Shown in pieces: positions 2,782 to 41,376 of a stretch of DNA of 42,292 nt. Both the position numbers and the translations under genes were made by a program. Below the pieces are notes generated by a model. The model worked only from the letters and a program-made list of their open reading frames with translations. It was not told the origin of the DNA and did no database searches. The DNA is from Escherichia phage K1ind1. The stretch lies in the sequence record NC_041897.1; one strand, 5' to 3'. Positions within the stretch are counted from its first letter, which is position 1, and each line of letters opens with the position of its first letter.

Positions 2782-3858
2782 ATGCTATTAACTTTAGCGC
2801 CACAGGGTTTATCTATGAGCTTACTTACATCGCTAATCAGCCACCAGATATGGCTGCAACGCACCGCATCCGGCGAAGTGAAAGACCTCGCGCCGTTCAT
2901 TAAGGAAATGCGGGACGAAATCAAACGGCAGGTGCTGCTATTCGGTGACGACGGGCGTAGCACCGCGCGACTGAATAAACTGTTACGCGACCTGGAAGAA
3001 GCACTGGCAGGACTTACAGGTGACTGGCGAACAAAGCTGACAGAAGACCTTAAGGAACTGGCAGCGTATGAGGCGGAGTGGAACGTAAAAACGCTGACGA
3101 CTAACGTCAACGCGGAATTTGTTACACCTACCGCCGAACAGGTGTGGGCCGCTGCCGAGTTTCAGCCCTTATCGTTAAGCTACAAACCTGTTGATTTCAC
3201 TAAGCTGATGTCAGGCTGGGGTGAAACCGAAGTCGCGCGCCTGGTAACGGGTGTTAAGATGGGCTTTGTACAAGGTCAAACCACGCGGCAGATTGTTAAG
3301 AATGTTGTTGGTGCCGGTGGGCTAACTGACATATCTGAGCGCACCGCGGCTACCGTCATCCGCACCGCGCTGTCTCACGTGTCCAACGAAGCCCGTAACG
3401 AGACGTACCGCCAGAACGACGACATCATCGAGAAGTACGAGTGGGTGTCAACGCTTGACAGCCGCACCAGTACGATTTGCAGGGTCAGAGACGGAATGAC
3501 GTGGAGAATCGGTAAAGGTCCGATGCCCCCCGCCCATCCTAACTGTCGAAGTACCACGGCCCCTGTAATCAGTTCCGAGTTCGACTTCCTCGATAAAGGC
3601 GCAAAACGCGCGGCTAAAGGCGCATACGGCGGTACTCAGGTAAGCGCGGACACCACTTATTACGAGTTCCTGAAACAACAGCCTGCATGGTTTCAGGACC
3701 AGGCGCTCGGCCCTGTTCGCGGTAAGATTTTCCGTAACAGCGGTATATCGCCGGAAGAGTTTCGCGTAATATCTGTAGATGGTTTCGGGAATCCGCTCAC
3801 GCTTAAACAGATGGCGGAACTCGATAAACGTGTTGCTGATTATCTGAAAGGGGATTAA
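2782..3858 (+). CDS. head morphogenesis / minor head protein (Mu F / SPP1 gp7-like position)
   Basis: 358 aa ORF following portal; assignment by synteny and size, not by a recognised motif. Confidence 0.5.
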   Translation: MLLTLAPQGLSMSLLTSLISHQIWLQRTASGEVKDLAPFIKEMRDEIKRQVLLFGDDGRSTARLNKLLRDLEEALAGLTGDWRTKLTEDLKELAAYEAEWNVKTLTTNVNAEFVTPTAEQVWAAAEFQPLSLSYKPVDFTKLMSGWGETEVARLVTGVKMGFVQGQTTRQIVKNVVGAGGLTDISERTAATVIRTALSHVSNEARNETYRQNDDIIEKYEWVSTLDSRTSTICRVRDGMTWRIGKGPMPPAHPNCRSTTAPVISSEFDFLDKGAKRAAKGAYGGTQVSADTTYYEFLKQQPAWFQDQALGPVRGKIFRNSGISPEEFRVISVDGFGNPLTLKQMAELDKRVADYLKGD

Positions 3859-4319
3859 TGATGGGCTTTTTCAAAGTAACTGATGTACCGTCACGTCGCG
3901 TAGTCCAGTACGCCCGCGTGTCTGGCTCTGGTGAGAACGTGGTGTTTATTGATGATGAAAGTGTACTCGGTACACCCGAAGACGATATGCCGTTTGCAGA
4001 TAAAACCGGTATTGCGTTACCCGCGGCGGGCATGCTTTATGAAATTCCGTATCTGGCGGATGCAGGTGACGTGTATTTCTCGGTGCAACCGAAAGACACC
4101 GAGCTGGTCGACGGTAGCGCCACCATCACCGTCGAAGTTAAGGCGGGTAAAGCGCCGTGTGTACTGACCTGGTACAAAGACGGCAAGGAAGTGGTAAACG
4201 CCCCAGAAGAGGCTTTGTCTCTGACGGTTAATGCTGTCGGTGAATACTTCGTTAAAGTCACCGATGCCGATGGGGTAGAGGCCGTCAGTAAAGCGGCGAA
4301 GGTTACTAAGCCAGAATAA
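3858..4319 (+). CDS. Ig-like (Big_2-type) domain protein, possible capsid decoration
   Basis: 153 aa; C-terminal beta-rich segment with TWYKDGKEV motif typical of phage Ig-like domains; start overlaps upstream stop (TAATG). Confidence 0.5.
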   Translation: MMGFFKVTDVPSRRVVQYARVSGSGENVVFIDDESVLGTPEDDMPFADKTGIALPAAGMLYEIPYLADAGDVYFSVQPKDTELVDGSATITVEVKAGKAPCVLTWYKDGKEVVNAPEEALSLTVNAVGEYFVKVTDADGVEAVSKAAKVTKPE

Positions 4320-4323
4320 ACTG

Positions 4324-4345
4324 AAGCCCCGAAAGGGGCTTTTTA
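4324..4345 (+). terminator. rho-independent terminator
   Basis: AGCCCC-GAAA-GGGGCT hairpin followed by TTTTT. Confidence 0.6.
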
Positions 4346-4614
4346 GTGCCTGTGATTATTCCAGTTATTCCACTCAATTGTAAATGTTGGAATAAACTAT
4401 TCGAATAGTCGACTTTTCACCAAAAATGTGCTAAGCTCCACCTGAGCTTGTGAAGTATGAACAAGCGACCGCGGCGCGGCAGGTAACGGAGCCGGACGTT
4501 AAGTCCGAGTGTAGTTACGCTGACGCGTTCGGAAGGGCCATACTCTATTGCTTGTGTAAAAAGTAACTGGTTTACTGAGATTACGCCGTTTCTATGTTTA
4601 AATGATAAGTACTA

Positions 4615-4641
4615 GCGCCCCGCTTTAAGGCGGGGCTTTAC
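4615..4641 (+). terminator. terminator-like hairpin
   Basis: GCCCCGC-TTTAAG-GCGGGGC stem-loop followed by TTT; ends a 300-bp non-coding stretch. Confidence 0.45.
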
Positions 4642-4660
4642 TTATCGAGAAAGGGGAAAC

Positions 4661-5047
4661 ATGAATCTTAAAGCAACTGTCGTAGCGGGAGCATGTTTCA
4701 TCATCCTGACTTACGCACACGGCATCTACCAGTATCGCATCGGCTGGAACGAAGGCCGGGCCAATCTCGTTTCACAGCAACAGCAGAAAGCACAGGCTGA
4801 GTTAGCGAAGAAAACACAACGGCAGCAGCAGGATGAATCAAAGGCCGCGGCTGCTGACAGCGAAGGCAAGACGAAATCAGAGGTGATTACCCGTGAAGTC
4901 GTTAAGTACATTAAAACGCCTGGTCGCAGCGTGTGCACTTTTGACCCTGAGCGCGTGCAGCTCAAGTCCCGCGCCGTCGCAAACGCCAATTCCATCCCCG
5001 GATATGACGATGATGCAGCCGCCGTGCAAACTGGCCCCGCCAAGTAG
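4661..5047 (+). CDS. i-spanin (Rz-like)
   Basis: 128 aa; N-terminal transmembrane segment (VVAGACFIILTYAHGIY) then Q/A/K-rich coiled-coil; overlapped by a lipoprotein ORF in the +1 frame. Confidence 0.6.
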   Translation: MNLKATVVAGACFIILTYAHGIYQYRIGWNEGRANLVSQQQQKAQAELAKKTQRQQQDESKAAAADSEGKTKSEVITREVVKYIKTPGRSVCTFDPERVQLKSRAVANANSIPGYDDDAAAVQTGPAK

Positions 5048-5156
5048 CGACGCCGACGAGGATTTAGCTATCGACGTTCAGAATGCCGAATGTGTACGGC
5101 AACTGAGACTGAAAGTGTTCATGTTGCAGGATTACGTGAGGAATATTCTGGAATAG
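4893..5156 (+). CDS. o-spanin (Rz1-like) outer-membrane lipoprotein
   Basis: 87 aa; GTG start with GAGGTGA RBS; lipobox LLTLSAC followed by Pro-rich sequence; begins inside the Rz-like gene in +1 frame and extends past it. Confidence 0.6.
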   Translation: MKSLSTLKRLVAACALLTLSACSSSPAPSQTPIPSPDMTMMQPPCKLAPPSSDADEDLAIDVQNAECVRQLRLKVFMLQDYVRNILE

Positions 5157-5238
5157 TTGCCTTGCATGTTGGAATAATTTATTCTTGACATGTAAATCCG
5201 GGTGGCCCGGATTCCAACGTCCAGGGGACATACTGACT

Positions 5239-7007: not shown

Positions 7008-7032
7008 GAGAGGGACTTCGGTCCCTCTTTTC
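7008..7032 (+). terminator. rho-independent terminator
   Basis: GAGGGAC-TTCG-GTCCCTC hairpin followed by TTTTCATTT. Confidence 0.65.
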
Positions 7033-11355: not shown

Positions 11356-11380
11356 AAGGCCCCTTTCGGGGCCTTTTTCT
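11356..11380. terminator. bidirectional rho-independent terminator
   Basis: AGGCCCC-TTTC-GGGGCCT hairpin flanked by T-run on plus strand and TTAGTTTT on minus strand; separates major tail gene from convergent island. Confidence 0.6.
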
Positions 11381-13776: not shown

Positions 13777-13806
13777 TTTAAATCCCTCCATTGTTGGTGT
13801 AAGTGA

Positions 13807-13835
13807 ATAGTACCCTATTATATTGGGGTGTGCAA
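13807..13835 (-). promoter_or_regulatory. sigma70-like promoter TTGCAC-17-TACTAT with embedded AATAG-N4-CTATT palindrome (13806-13819)
   Basis: minus-strand reading CTTGCACACCCCAATATAATAGGGTACTATTCAC is nearly identical to the plus-strand cassette at 35342; lies about 30 nt upstream of the Imm-like gene. Confidence 0.5.
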
Positions 13836-13943: not shown

Positions 13944-14360
13944 ATGAAACTTTCTGATTTTTATTTCGAAGAGAAAGCACTGGCGGGCAAGAAGATGCCG
14001 ATTTTGCTGCCGAATGGTGAAGACTCCGGCGAGTGGCTTAATGTCGTAAATCCTGATGCGGATGCCGCCGTTAAAGCGGGGCGTGCTTTCATTATTGCGT
14101 ACCGCCGCGGGCTGGCACGTTTTGAAGAACTGGAAAAAGCTGCCAAAGACTCTGGTGATTATACTGAATATAATCTGGCGGTTAACGAACTGGCGGAAGA
14201 CCTAAACCGGCAACTCGCGGCAGAAGTCGTAAACGGCTGGAGCTTTGATGAGCCTTTCTCTAAGGAAGCGTTTAACAAATTGCTCGACCAGTTCAAAGCA
14301 TTAGGCACACAGGTAGCTGCGTTTCATAACGCTGAGCGCAAAGCATTACAGGAAAAGTAG
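13944..14360 (+). CDS. tail assembly chaperone (gpG-like)
   Basis: 138 aa acidic protein immediately upstream of tape measure; classic position. Confidence 0.55.
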   Translation: MKLSDFYFEEKALAGKKMPILLPNGEDSGEWLNVVNPDADAAVKAGRAFIIAYRRGLARFEELEKAAKDSGDYTEYNLAVNELAEDLNRQLAAEVVNGWSFDEPFSKEAFNKLLDQFKALGTQVAAFHNAERKALQEK

Positions 14361-14725
14361 ACGCGCTGTACAGGTTCGCCACCTACGAGTTCGTTGATAA
14401 GCATAAAATCAGAGAGTTTGATTCTATAGCCGACGGACATGAACAGGCGCTTATCGCGATGGGTGTAATCGATAAGAAAAAACGTGCAGCGCGACGGGGT
14501 GGGCCAGAATGCCCGCCCCTTTTTATATCCACCTTTGAGACGTATTGCGACATTAAGTTTACGCGACACGTGCGCGAGGACGCTGTAGTATTGTTTGCAA
14601 GAGAATCTGTTACGTGGCAAGACCTGAAAGCCTATCTCGATGTTATGCAAAAACAGCTTAGCCTGTTCGAGATAGACATTATCATGGGCTTAGAAGCAAT
14701 CTTTGAAGGTAGAAATCATGGCTGA
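13944..14725 (+). CDS. tail assembly chaperone frameshift fusion product (gpGT-like), inferred
   Basis: 0-frame ORF 13944-14360 joined to -1 frame 14336-14725; downstream ORF lacks its own RBS-ATG near the frame opening. Confidence 0.4.
14351..14357 (+). other. candidate -1 ribosomal slippery site GGAAAAG
   Basis: the -1 frame is open from 14336 to stop at 14725; A_AAA_G-type site 2 codons before the 0-frame stop. Confidence 0.4.
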
Positions 14726-26873: not shown

Positions 26874-27158
26874 CTAACTATAATAGTTCGCTATTAGGTC
26901 GTCAACCTGTTTAAACGAACCAACGACAAAAACATTTGCACCGCGTTTACGCATCCGCCCGTGCTCTCGTAGCTGGTGTGGGTCTGGCTTCGTGCTTTCG
27001 TCTTTCTTAACCTCAACGAACCAGATGATGCCGCCGGGGAGAATTACCAGCAGGTCGGGGGCGCCCACTCTATTTTCGTACGACAATTTGCGTACGAGGC
27101 CCCCCAGGGCCTCGAATCGCTCTTTTGCGTATTTCTGTACGCGGCCCTCTTTAGTCAT
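26874..27158 (-). CDS. VRR-NUC domain nuclease (PD-(D/E)xK)
   Basis: about 94 aa from ATG 27158; GAPDLLVI ... VEVKK motif arrangement typical of VRR-NUC. Confidence 0.55.
   Translation of the reverse strand: MTKEGRVQKYAKERFEALGGLVRKLSYENRVGAPDLLVILPGGIIWFVEVKKDESTKPDPHQLREHGRMRKRGANVFVVGSFKQVDDLIANYYS
26877..26905 (-). promoter_or_regulatory. sigma70-like promoter TTGACG-17-TATAGT with AATAG-N4-CTATT palindrome in spacer (26882-26895)
   Basis: read on minus strand; lies inside the last codons of the VRR-NUC gene; drives 26843 and downstream genes. Confidence 0.45.
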
Positions 27159-31865: not shown

Positions 31866-31894
31866 ATATAATAGCGAACTATTCACGTTGTCAA
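31866..31894 (-). promoter_or_regulatory. sigma70-like promoter TTGACA-17-TTATAT with AATAG-N4-CTATT palindrome in spacer (31870-31883)
   Basis: consensus -35 on minus strand (plus 31889-31894), -10 at plus 31866-31871; upstream of 31833 gene. Confidence 0.5.
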
Positions 31895-35343: not shown

Positions 35344-35372
35344 TTGCACACCCCAACATAATAGGATACTAT
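35344..35372 (+). promoter_or_regulatory. sigma70-like promoter TTGCAC-17-TACTAT with AATAG-N4-CTATT palindrome (35360-35373)
   Basis: conserved cassette CTTGCACACCCCAACATAATAGGATACTATTCAC; GAGGAG RBS and ATG 35407 downstream. Confidence 0.5.
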
Positions 35373-35406
35373 TCACTTATCGAAACGAGACAGAGGAGTG
35401 AGGGTT

Positions 35407-36671: not shown

Positions 36672-36845
36672 ATGATTACTAAAGAACAGGCTGAACGACT
36701 AATAACGTTAATCGACACGATGATTGACGTAAAAACCGATTTAGCAACGGCAACAGAGGAATCCGCTACCTGGTCGCTTGAAGAAAGAGAAGCAGAAGCG
36801 GAAAGGGAGTTACTTGCGTTCATCGACTCTATAACACACCAATAA
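36672..36845 (+). CDS. small hypothetical protein (57 aa, below ORF-track cutoff)
   Basis: ATG with AGGAG RBS; competes with a low-complexity antisense ORF. Confidence 0.3.
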   Translation: MITKEQAERLITLIDTMIDVKTDLATATEESATWSLEEREAEAERELLAFIDSITHQ

Positions 36846-36852
36846 AATTTAC

Positions 36853-36881
36853 TTGCACACTAAGATAGAATAGGCTACTAT
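36853..36881 (+). promoter_or_regulatory. sigma70-like promoter TTGCAC-17-TACTAT with AATAG-N4-CTATT palindrome (36869-36882)
   Basis: second plus-strand copy of conserved cassette; GAGGAGAG RBS and ATG 36913 downstream. Confidence 0.5.
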
Positions 36882-36912
36882 TCATTTACACAAACGAGAG
36901 GAGAGACGGAAG

Positions 36913-40545: not shown

Positions 40546-40776
40546 ATGTTTCATGAATTAAAGATATTACCTGAGCATTTTGAGCCTGTTTTAGCAGGCG
40601 TTAAGTTGGCGGAACTTCGATTAAACGACCGTAACTTTAAAGTGGACGATACTTTGTGTCTGAGAGAATACGAAAACGGTGGGTACACAGGCCGTATCGT
40701 TTACCGCCGCGTTATTCATGTTGCGGACGTAGGGGCTTACCTACCAGGGTATGTACTATTAAGTATGGAGGATTGA
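40546..40776 (+). CDS. DUF3850 / ASCH (PUA-like) domain protein
   Basis: 76 aa; ELKILPEHFEPVLAGVK..ELRLNDRNFKVDDTLCLRE pattern typical of this phage-associated family. Confidence 0.45.
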   Translation: MFHELKILPEHFEPVLAGVKLAELRLNDRNFKVDDTLCLREYENGGYTGRIVYRRVIHVADVGAYLPGYVLLSMED

Positions 40777-40862: not shown

Positions 40863-41143
40863 TGGCACGTACTGTCGCCGCGAGATTCACAGACATTGAA
40901 TCCGCTATTGAAGAAGCCGTTTACAGTAAGTTCTGCAACCCTTCTGCGGTTCATAACTACGGTATTATCATGCGGTACGGTAAGTTTGAAATTCGCAGGG
41001 TGCGCAGCAGTCGCCCGCAAGAGTTTTTATGGACCACAGAAAGCCTTGTCCCTAGATGCCACATCTACACAAGCGGTGCTCATACAGTTTTCGTAGACCT
41101 GGACAAGAAAGATATTACAGTTACTAAGGGAGAGATTAATTGA
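40862..41143 (+). CDS. hypothetical protein
   Basis: 93 aa ORF. Confidence 0.4.
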   Translation: MARTVAARFTDIESAIEEAVYSKFCNPSAVHNYGIIMRYGKFEIRRVRSSRPQEFLWTTESLVPRCHIYTSGAHTVFVDLDKKDITVTKGEIN

Positions 41144-41376
41144 TTACCAGCATTCCGAACCTGATTAAAGAATTTGGCACGATGGCGGAGACATGCCGAC
41201 AAACCGGCATCAACGAAATGACGATTGCGAAGTACAGCAAAGACGTAGATTGTGAACGCCATGTAATTTATAACAATCGTCTGATGACGCACGTTAAGAC
41301 AAGCCCGGTGTTATTCACGCGCCGGGGTATTACTAAAACAGAGCAACGTATTGCTAAAGAGGATAGTGGGGAATGA
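41140..41376 (+). CDS. hypothetical protein, possible HTH
   Basis: 78 aa from TTG (GGGAGAG RBS) or 64 aa from ATG 41182; ETCRQTGINEMTIAKY segment is HTH-like. Confidence 0.35.
   Translation: MITSIPNLIKEFGTMAETCRQTGINEMTIAKYSKDVDCERHVIYNNRLMTHVKTSPVLFTRRGITKTEQRIAKEDSGE

Follow-up and report, generated by a model that had tools for sequence, protein, structure and literature searches.

Sequence evidence for a conserved, structured RNA element ahead of the Rz/Rz1 spanin genes in the head module of Escherichia phage K1ind1

What occupies the 315 bp (positions 4346-4660) that lie after the Hoc-like head gene and before the Rz/Rz1 spanin genes of Escherichia phage K1ind1? The 42,292-nucleotide stretch that we analysed (NC_041897.1, called the window below) is a near-complete Kagunavirus genome (subfamily Guernseyvirinae), and its positions 4300-4700 have 99.5% identity to Escherichia phage K1ind2. 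No open reading frame (ORF) of 60 or more residues overlaps the gap, just as the initial annotation had stated; the longest has 38 residues (4450-4566). That annotation had described the gap as bracketed by terminators and as consistent with a small non-coding RNA or a regulatory hub, a proposal that gains support here from conservation, from compensatory changes and from the rejection of a coding role, while a conserved promoter and repeat block fit the idea of a hub. We conclude that the gap very probably holds a conserved, transcribed, structured non-coding RNA element, namely an untranslated RNA of ~200 nt on the plus strand (leader or small RNA, ~4444-4646). For its role we prefer a cis-acting leader/attenuator of the Rz/Rz1 message, with a terminated RNA as by-product, a reading for which our confidence and our doubt are about evenly matched.

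A BLAST search with this stretch returned at least 177 deposited phage genomes with nearly full-length matches, >90% identical in almost all of them, and ~320 further matches that were weak or partial, some of them in unrelated phages. The high-identity carriers were Kagunaviruses and some Jerseyviruses (SP-101, S100, ER10-14), while SETP3-like Jerseyviruses had a much more diverged version, and further loci were retrieved from IMG/VR and metagenomes by way of the spanin protein; a degenerate DNA pattern scan of IMG/VR was unspecific and gave chance matches only. We sorted the loci, which carry numbers prefixed with L, into four sequence types: type 1 in this phage and its close relatives (the window, L001-L003), type 2 in SETP3-like Jerseyviruses (L004-L006, L043-L052), type 3 in Cornellvirus (L175, L178, L181, L222) and type 4 in uncultured relatives (L219, L226-L231), with L021 and L033 as intermediates between types. 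In all relatives examined, 318-390 untranslated bp precede the spanin gene. When Salmonella phages with a type 1 RNA were compared with the window, the RNA was 93.6-94.6% identical, against ~85% for the Hoc-like gene, 71-81% for the spanin and ~82% for the scaffold; between types 1 and 2 the relation was reversed, with ~50% identity in the RNA and 65-82% in the flanking genes. Conservation within types combined with divergence between them indicates that each type is tightly constrained and that the types lie far apart. The RNA of ER10 belongs to a block of ~2 kb that also takes in the head-morphogenesis and Hoc-like genes and is more similar to Kagunavirus than to SETP3, and this pattern looks like an exchange of alternative modules; a three-genome tile comparison brought out no distant partner gene co-varying with RNA type. 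A fifth group of distant metagenomic sequences (L217-L223) has an unrelated but equally long untranslated leader (~300 nt) upstream of the spanin gene, with TTGCGAG(T) repeats, and a long leader before the head-module spanin seems to be a general feature irrespective of sequence.

The plus strand of 4444-4646 folds with an energy of -73.5 kcal/mol, compared with -60.1 ± 4.4 kcal/mol for shuffled sequences (z = -3.1) and -62.7 kcal/mol for the minus strand. Since the plus strand folds 11 kcal/mol better, and since several of its G-U pairs would become C-A on the minus strand, the functional strand should be the plus strand and the functional molecule RNA. Its first element is a 5' hairpin, P1 (GCTTGT-N9-ACAAGC, 4446-4466), at whose site other relatives have hairpins of unrelated sequence: TACGCT-TTC-AGCGTA in type 2, an 8-bp version in L033, and AAGATGC-GAAA-GCATCTT, GAGGGAC-GAAT-GTCCCTC or CGCCCC-ACA-GGGGCG in type 4. 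A sigma-dependent pause repeat was considered here and rejected, as TGAGCT (type 1) and TACGCT (type 2), the sequences next after the -10 hexamer, belong to P1 and type 3 has no equivalent. Next comes a long irregular hairpin of 64 nt and ~22 bp (4469-4532), built of CCG/CGG, GGCGCG/CGCGTT, CAG/CTG and GTAAC/GTTAC and capped by the apex CGGAC-GTTAA-GTCCG (4493-4507), which had been listed initially as a short hairpin in its own right and proves to be one with compensatory changes in relatives. One pair of the 64-nt hairpin is swapped from C-G to U-A (21 versus 10 distinct sequences, none broken), the apical CGGGAC/GTCCTG becomes CGGTGC/GCACTG in L021 and L033 or GGGCGC/GCGCCC in type 2, and GTAAC/GTTAC becomes GGAAC/GTTCC in L033; in type 4 this nested hairpin recurs, with GUAA as its loop and a swap from GGGGC/GCCCC to GGGAC/GTCCC. 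The window itself is slightly atypical, with an apical 5-bp stem and GUUAA pentaloop where nearly all type 1 relatives have a 6-bp stem and GUAA tetraloop (4492-4507), and with a 1-nt deletion in the GGCGCGG run (4477/4478) relative to nearly all of them; L032 shares both the deletion and the altered apical hairpin.

Beyond the 64-nt hairpin the most widely conserved stretch of the RNA is a purine-rich motif resembling a ribosome-binding site (RBS), CGGAAGGG (4530-4537, plus strand), whose CGGAAGG core is invariant in types 1 and 2; the motif is also found in type 3, and its eighth base varies in four type 1 sequences. The small hairpin AGTAA-CTGGT-TTACT (4562-4576, plus strand) is present as initially noted, but it is weakly supported: the changes in type 1 are mostly A-to-G, giving G-U pairs, L016 breaks one pair, L033 has lost the hairpin, and in type 2 the segment is unaligned and the hairpin not clearly kept. 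The RNA ends in a bipartite 3' hairpin (4604-4646, plus strand) of two stems with the apex CTTTAAG, the lower stem being GATAAGTA/TACTTATC (4604-4611 / 4639-4646) and the upper, GC-rich stem GCCCCGC/GCGGGGC (4617-4623 / 4630-4636). One pair of the upper stem occurs as C-G, G-C, A-U and U-A, and the lower stem reads GATAAG/CTTATC in type 1 and TATACG/CGTATA in type 2. In the window the lower stem ends 14 nt and the GC stem 24 nt before the spanin ATG; the latter distance is 24-25 nt in all four types.

The pairing was tested on a MAFFT alignment built without reference to structure. The model paired 91.7% of cells, against 31-41% when partners were slid by 1-3 columns, and the covariation score was 0.156 against 0.077 in shuffles, exceeded in none of 500; as shuffling is a lenient control among related sequences, more weight attaches to the sliding of partners and to the specific swaps. 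Six distant type 4 sequences, folded separately, gave the same nested hairpin, with compensatory changes in 12 of 68 predicted pairs, and type 4 shares UAGCG, ATAGTCTATT and the 3'-hairpin apex GCUUWRGGC with types 1-3; by these shared motifs and fold the family extends beyond the named genera. The compensatory and G-U-compatible changes thus support the helices, and the check on conservation and compensatory changes that had been suggested at the outset was positive. A covariance model made from types 1 and 2 gave a single match in each genome, in every case directly ahead of the spanin gene, and did not recover types 3 and 4. The suggested Rfam search gave nothing and assigns the RNA to no known family: in Rfam 15 (4227 models) the best E-value for the region was 1.5, the hits being to unrelated families with 12-16 bits against gathering thresholds of 35-75, and seven relatives of types 2-4 had no match at E <= 1. 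We likewise found no description of the RNA in the literature on Kagunavirus, Jerseyvirus, Guernseyvirinae and MB78. The family appears undescribed, while its kind (promoter plus leader, attenuator or small RNA) is familiar.

How might such an RNA be made? A rightward extended -10 sigma-70 promoter on the plus strand (4409-4437, TCGACT-17-TGcTAAGCT) consists of a -35 hexamer TCGACT (4409-4414), a 17-bp spacer, a TG at 4429-4430 and a -10 hexamer TAAGCT (4432-4437). A simple scan missed it because the -10 hexamer matches three of six consensus bases; it has the A at hexamer position 2, the T at position 6 and the TGn in front that mark an extended -10. The -35 matches at four of six positions in the window, where position 4410 makes it weaker than the TTGACT (five of six) of nearly all type 1 relatives. 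Type 2 has TAGACT / TGtTACGCT and type 3 TGGATT / TGaTAACCT at unchanged spacing, and types 1, 2 and 3 have the pattern xxGAxT-17-TGn-TAxxCT in common, with a spacer whose sequence changes. A changing spacer with fixed spacing, TG and TA..CT is how a real extended -10 promoter evolves, and the promoter-like AT-rich start of the initial annotation is borne out by a promoter conserved in position, spacing and TG across three divergent types. The predicted transcription start is at ~4444-4445.

Some 50-88 bp upstream of that predicted start lies a conserved control block of direct repeats and an inverted hexamer (4355-4395), comprising TATTCC at 4357-4362 and 4366-4371 (TATTCC-AGT-TATTCC, 4357-4371), TGTAAAT at 4379-4385 and the inverted GGAATA(A) at 4389-4395. 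Conservation begins at ~4355 and extends rightward, even in relatives in which everything to the left is replaced. The direct repeats are identical in types 1-3 despite diverged surroundings, the inverted GGAATA is kept in nearly all relatives (L033 has a varied form), and types 1 and 2 share TGTAAAT, which is absent from type 3. Clusters of GGAATA/TATTCC (three within 80 bp) occur at just two sites in the genome, this block and 5140-5176 upstream of the scaffold gene. At the latter a second conserved promoter (TTGCCT-17-TATTCT, 5157-5162 / 5180-5185, plus strand) is followed, just before the scaffold RBS, by the plus-strand hairpin CCGGGTGGCCCGG (CCGGG-TGG-CCCGG, 5198-5210); promoter and hairpin (5157-5210) are nearly invariant across types 1-3, and the hairpin and RBS are recognisable even in a Dhillonvirus (L177, 3340-3390). 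The TATTCC/GGAATA repeats are probably candidate binding sites for a regulator, and it is a reasonable inference that they give two late promoters a common regulator-binding motif.

Two other signals in or near the block did not hold up. A leftward sigma-70-like match on the minus strand (TTTACA-18-TGgAATAAT, 4355-4384; 10 of 12 positions plus TG in the window and type 2) is probably a by-product of the repeat block and not a working promoter; it points straight into the terminator at 4341-4324, and its -35 is absent from type 3. As a promoter for the extra minus-strand gene that some relatives carry at this junction it was rejected, as precisely these relatives have a defective -10 (AATACG) and a AATAGTACCCTATT palindrome promoter region of their own. 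The perfect palindrome CTATTCGAATAG (4397-4408), to which the initial annotation had drawn attention, does lie between the repeat block and the -35 hexamer, but its significance does not stand: one everted palindrome was found against 0.46 expected, at least one appeared in 42 of 100 shuffles, and the site is non-palindromic in other types (TATTCCAAAAAT, TATTCAAAAAG), the TATTC half alone being conserved in types 2 and 3. The CTATTCGAATAG palindrome is therefore at chance level and not conserved. The recurrent palindrome of this genome is AATAG-N4-CTATT, with five occurrences against 0.36 expected (13806-13819, 26882-26895, 31870-31883, 35360-35373 and 36869-36882), none in 4346-4660; it fronts early and middle, mostly minus-strand genes and matches a motif published as a predicted phage promoter for the relative fBC-Eco01 (PMC9825357). 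These phages encode no RNA polymerase, though the fBC-Eco01 motif was called a 'phage promoter', and AATAG-N4-CTATT is probably an operator for a phage regulator.

At the other end of the RNA, both terminator hairpins that had been taken to bracket the gap were found (4324-4341 and 4617-4636). The second was flagged by a terminator scan with 8 pairs, 7 of them G-C, and the tail TTTACTTATC, and its GC-rich stem is maintained by compensatory changes. The tail is the point on which the types part: that of type 1, UUUACUUAU, passes the simple scan with at most three consecutive U, while type 2 has a poor one (UUAGCGUAU) and types 3 and 4 have none, and all three fail the scan. The terminator-like end reported initially is thus present, but by these tails it is convincing as a terminator in the present sequence type (type 1) alone. 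A hairpin that lacks a good U tract elsewhere and yet keeps a fixed distance to the spanin start makes a 5' leader/attenuator likelier than a purely free-standing small RNA. Phage K1G (L236) has a second, inverted copy of the 3' hairpin in its early region (36775-36802, 27 of 28 nt), of which the window has no copy; re-use of the same hairpin elsewhere suggests that it probably does terminate.

The sequence of events that we envisage, read from the arrangement of these signals, is as follows. The head-gene transcript arriving from the left would stop at the hairpin 4324-4341, and host sigma-70 RNA polymerase would start anew at 4409-4437, behind a TATTCC/GGAATA block probably bound by a regulator. 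It would make an untranslated plus-strand RNA of ~200 nt consisting of the 5' hairpin, the 64-nt hairpin, the purine-rich stretch and the bipartite 3' hairpin, the last of which, with its short U-rich tail, may stop part of the polymerases in this phage and release the ~200-nt RNA. The remaining polymerases would read on into Rz/Rz1, whose RBS starts a few bases past the hairpin, and the RNA, as a cis leader/attenuator and a stability or processing element, would set the amount of spanin message. Of this scheme, sequence comparison establishes the promoter, the fold of the plus strand, the lack of coding and the constant place ahead of the spanin gene, from which the ends of the transcript, partial termination, action in cis and a factor on the repeats are deduced. 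We link the RNA to the spanin gene in cis because of the fixed 24-25 nt to the ATG, the restriction of the U tract to type 1, the single copy per genome at the spanin gene and the lack of complementary targets in the phage. RBS sequestration by the leader was predicted for type 3 and was inconsistent for types 1 and 2.

Several other explanations deserve weighing. That the gap encodes a small protein is the least credible of them. A 36-aa ORF is annotated in several GenBank records (e.g., Shashou gp7) and a 39-aa ORF in type 2 records, and a frame with AFGRA.LYC is open in both types 1 and 2; however, the stretch of peptide common to both falls on the conserved RNA motif, and no RBS stands in front. 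Of the changes in the 36-aa frame of type 1, 17 are non-synonymous and 6 synonymous, and they fall 8, 8 and 7 times on the three codon positions; natural isolates have frameshifts (L011, L028, L032), start-codon loss (L017) or stop-codon loss (L016), and in the window a 1-nt deletion destroys the annotated ATG frame. We rejected the small protein gene for this want of coding constraint and three-base periodicity and for the broken frames. It is very unlikely, too, that the element acts purely as DNA, whether as origin of replication, site of packaging or cluster of operators, and has no functional RNA. The AT-rich block, the repeated TATTCC hexamers and the palindrome would suit such a role, but the palindrome is not conserved, the compensatory changes and strand-specific G-U pairs reach 200 nt past the repeats, and a replication origin was rejected on the GC skew, which turns at ~24 kb and ~35 kb and not at 4346-4660. 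A more serious contender, if still an improbable one, is a free-standing trans-acting small RNA, in which most transcripts would stop at 4637-4646 and a stable RNA of ~200 nt, shielded by its 5' and 3' hairpins, would act on host or phage targets or sequester a protein, read-through into the spanin gene being incidental. Its own promoter and, in type 1, its terminator-like end speak for this, as do 5'- and 3'-terminal hairpins typical of stable RNAs, conservation above that of the neighbouring proteins, the discrete sequence types, and the use of the same hairpin elsewhere in K1G, which makes termination probable. Yet the U tract, weak in this phage, is lacking in types 2-4, where the hairpin still stands at a fixed distance from the ATG, a three-U tail is a poor Hfq-type 3' end, and the RNA was never found away from the spanin gene. 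Complementarity elsewhere in the phage, the only sequence searched for targets, was no better than chance (terminator look-alikes and chance-level matches), and 5,426 E. coli genomes had no homologue of the RNA, nor any match that would point to host origin or mimicry.

Processive antitermination would also place a folded RNA directly behind a promoter. We think it unlikely that the element is an HK022 put-like RNA or a lambda nut/qut-like loading site serving the long structural operon, such that polymerase would pass the hairpins at 4617-4636, 5198-5210 and 7008-7029. The hairpins do follow directly on a promoter that heads a late operon with several terminator-like hairpins, the discrete co-evolving types resemble nut/put specificity types, and the main hairpin of types 1 and 4 ends in a loop of the GNRA type (GUAA, with GUUAA in the window). 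However, the loops differ between types (CACA, UCC), which leaves no common loop-recognition signal, and the separate conserved scaffold promoter makes read-through unnecessary for capsid expression. No Q-like or N-like Pfam family was found among 20 small ORFs of the window, none is annotated in K1ind2, K1G or SETP3, and no conserved boxA (GCUCUUUA-like) was found, the nearest look-alike, ACTCTATTGC, showing more variation than any other part of the type 1 RNA and varying at exactly the CUC positions (AGTCT, AGGCT, ATTCT, ACTAT). We give a comparably low probability to a processing or stability signal for RNase III (or RNase E) as the whole explanation, with a cut separating a stable upstream fragment from a spanin mRNA that starts before the RBS. 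T7 and lambda use hairpins of this kind, and the RNA has two long irregular ones with internal loops (~22 bp and ~15 bp), the 3' one standing 24-25 nt from the start codon even without a U tract; on the other hand the stems are shorter than in classical RNase III substrates, and there is no sequence rule to compare against. RNase III processing is plausible and would be compatible with a leader/attenuator, not exclusive of it. Finally, and tentatively, the RNA may be functional in its own right, as a put-like modifier of polymerase or a protein-binding or decoy RNA co-evolving with a phage or host partner. If so, partner co-evolution would explain both why the RNA is conserved above the surrounding proteins and why ~50%-identical 'alleles' are exchanged among Kagunavirus, Jerseyvirus, Cornellvirus and metagenomic relatives.

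Some of our observations count against the cis-acting leader/attenuator that we prefer. The sharply distinct sequence types suggest a co-evolving partner and would sit more easily with an RNA that acts in trans or binds a factor, and the RNA seems far better conserved than simple attenuation of a low-demand gene would need. As a terminator the 3' end is imperfect: the tail UUUACUUAU base-pairs with the conserved lower stem, which makes its efficiency uncertain, and the three-U tail, its position within the lower stem and the persistence of the hairpin in types 2-4, where the U tract is scant or lacking, all speak against pure termination. From 4538 to 4603 the fold is uncertain, the covariance model missed type 3, for whose 5' half homology comes from an alignment by eye, and the Kagunavirus RNA-seq paper that we found covers annotated genes only.

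The surroundings of the element follow the gene order of K1ind2, with terminase, portal, head morphogenesis and the Hoc-like Ig-domain head protein (3858-4319, stop codon 4317-4319) on its 5' side and the Rz-like i-spanin, o-spanin, scaffold and major capsid protein on its 3' side. The i-spanin gene (4661-5047, plus strand), identified by the annotations in relatives, is the first gene 3' of the RNA; its RBS AAAGGGG and ATG (4661) lie at 4650-4663 on the plus strand, and the o-spanin gene (4893-5156, plus strand) is embedded in it. Holin and endolysin are located elsewhere, at 38-39 kb. The hairpin that closes the Hoc-like gene, AAGCCCCGAAAGGGGCTT (4324-4341), has a T run on its plus-strand side and a terminator-like flag on the minus strand. 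The same 18-mer also closes the portal gene; in the form AGCCCCGAAAGGGGCTTT the two copies lie at 2756-2773 and 4325-4342, with a further site at 11356-11375; behind the portal-gene copy the next head gene is 8-10 nt away with no promoter in between, from which it follows that read-through must occur there. The 4324-4341 hairpin is missing from relatives with an extra minus-strand gene at the same junction. This junction (~4320-4352), where the Hoc-like gene gives way to the promoter block, is a hotspot for insertions, with an 83-aa minus-strand gene of no assigned function in many relatives (L009, 1872-2123) and, in Cornellviruses, a 283-aa gene with a weak PAPS-reductase-like match (L175, 256-1110). 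In L009 the head-morphogenesis gene (205-1383) is apparently interrupted by a 269-aa ORF nested on the opposite strand (256-1065), which by eye looks like an intein or homing-endonuclease insertion.

Farther away, the strongest plus-strand terminator-like hairpin of the window (14496-14519; 9 pairs, tail TTTTTATATC) lies 3' of the short ORF of the tail-assembly chaperone (13944-14360) and 5' of the tape-measure gene, roughly coinciding with the K1ind2 annotation of the chaperone's programmed frameshift product. A lambda nin-like block directly upstream of the terminase genes includes a small gene with an ASCH/DUF3850 match, a putative RNA-binding fold (40546-40776), and another with a NinH-like, DNA-binding match (41140-41376); their products are possible candidate partners for the RNA or the repeat block. 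No transfer RNA or transfer-messenger RNA gene was found in the whole window.

Among candidate therapeutic phages for E. coli and Salmonella, the Guernseyvirinae (Kagunavirus, Jerseyvirus, Cornellvirus) are some of those isolated most often, and the element is currently left blank in their genomes or mis-annotated as 'hypothetical protein', so its recognition corrects annotations. It offers a first handle on the control of late and lysis genes in a group without a known late regulator, and it marks a site that phage engineers should leave undisturbed, while extra genes are naturally inserted at the same junction. As a well-populated new RNA family its natural types amount to built-in compensatory mutants for studies of termination, processing and RNA-protein recognition.

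Three known systems invite comparison. HK022 put and lambda nut likewise have stem-loops right after a promoter, in an operon with internal terminators, and fall into distinct specificity types; the RNA described here is ~3 times longer than put, has no boxA and shows no demonstrable N-like or Nus-dependent features. The RNase III hairpins of T7 are similar in being irregular and bipartite with an internal loop, in standing at a fixed short distance before the next RBS and in belonging to a virulent phage that relies on host RNases, but the stems here are shorter, the element has its own promoter, and cleavage is putative. In anatomy alone, the lambda pR'-tR' unit is comparable as well, with a promoter followed by an untranslated RNA of ~200 nt that ends at a terminator directly before lysis genes; Rz/Rz1 end the lambda lysis cassette. 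The two differ in that our phage has no sequence similarity that we could find to lambdoid phages and no Q-like protein detected among the 20 small ORFs tested, in that no promoter-proximal pause element is conserved, and in that holin and endolysin are encoded elsewhere. The lambda unit yields the 194-nt '6S' RNA and its counterpart in Stx phages yields StxS, so that the terminated by-product of such a unit can itself be functional.

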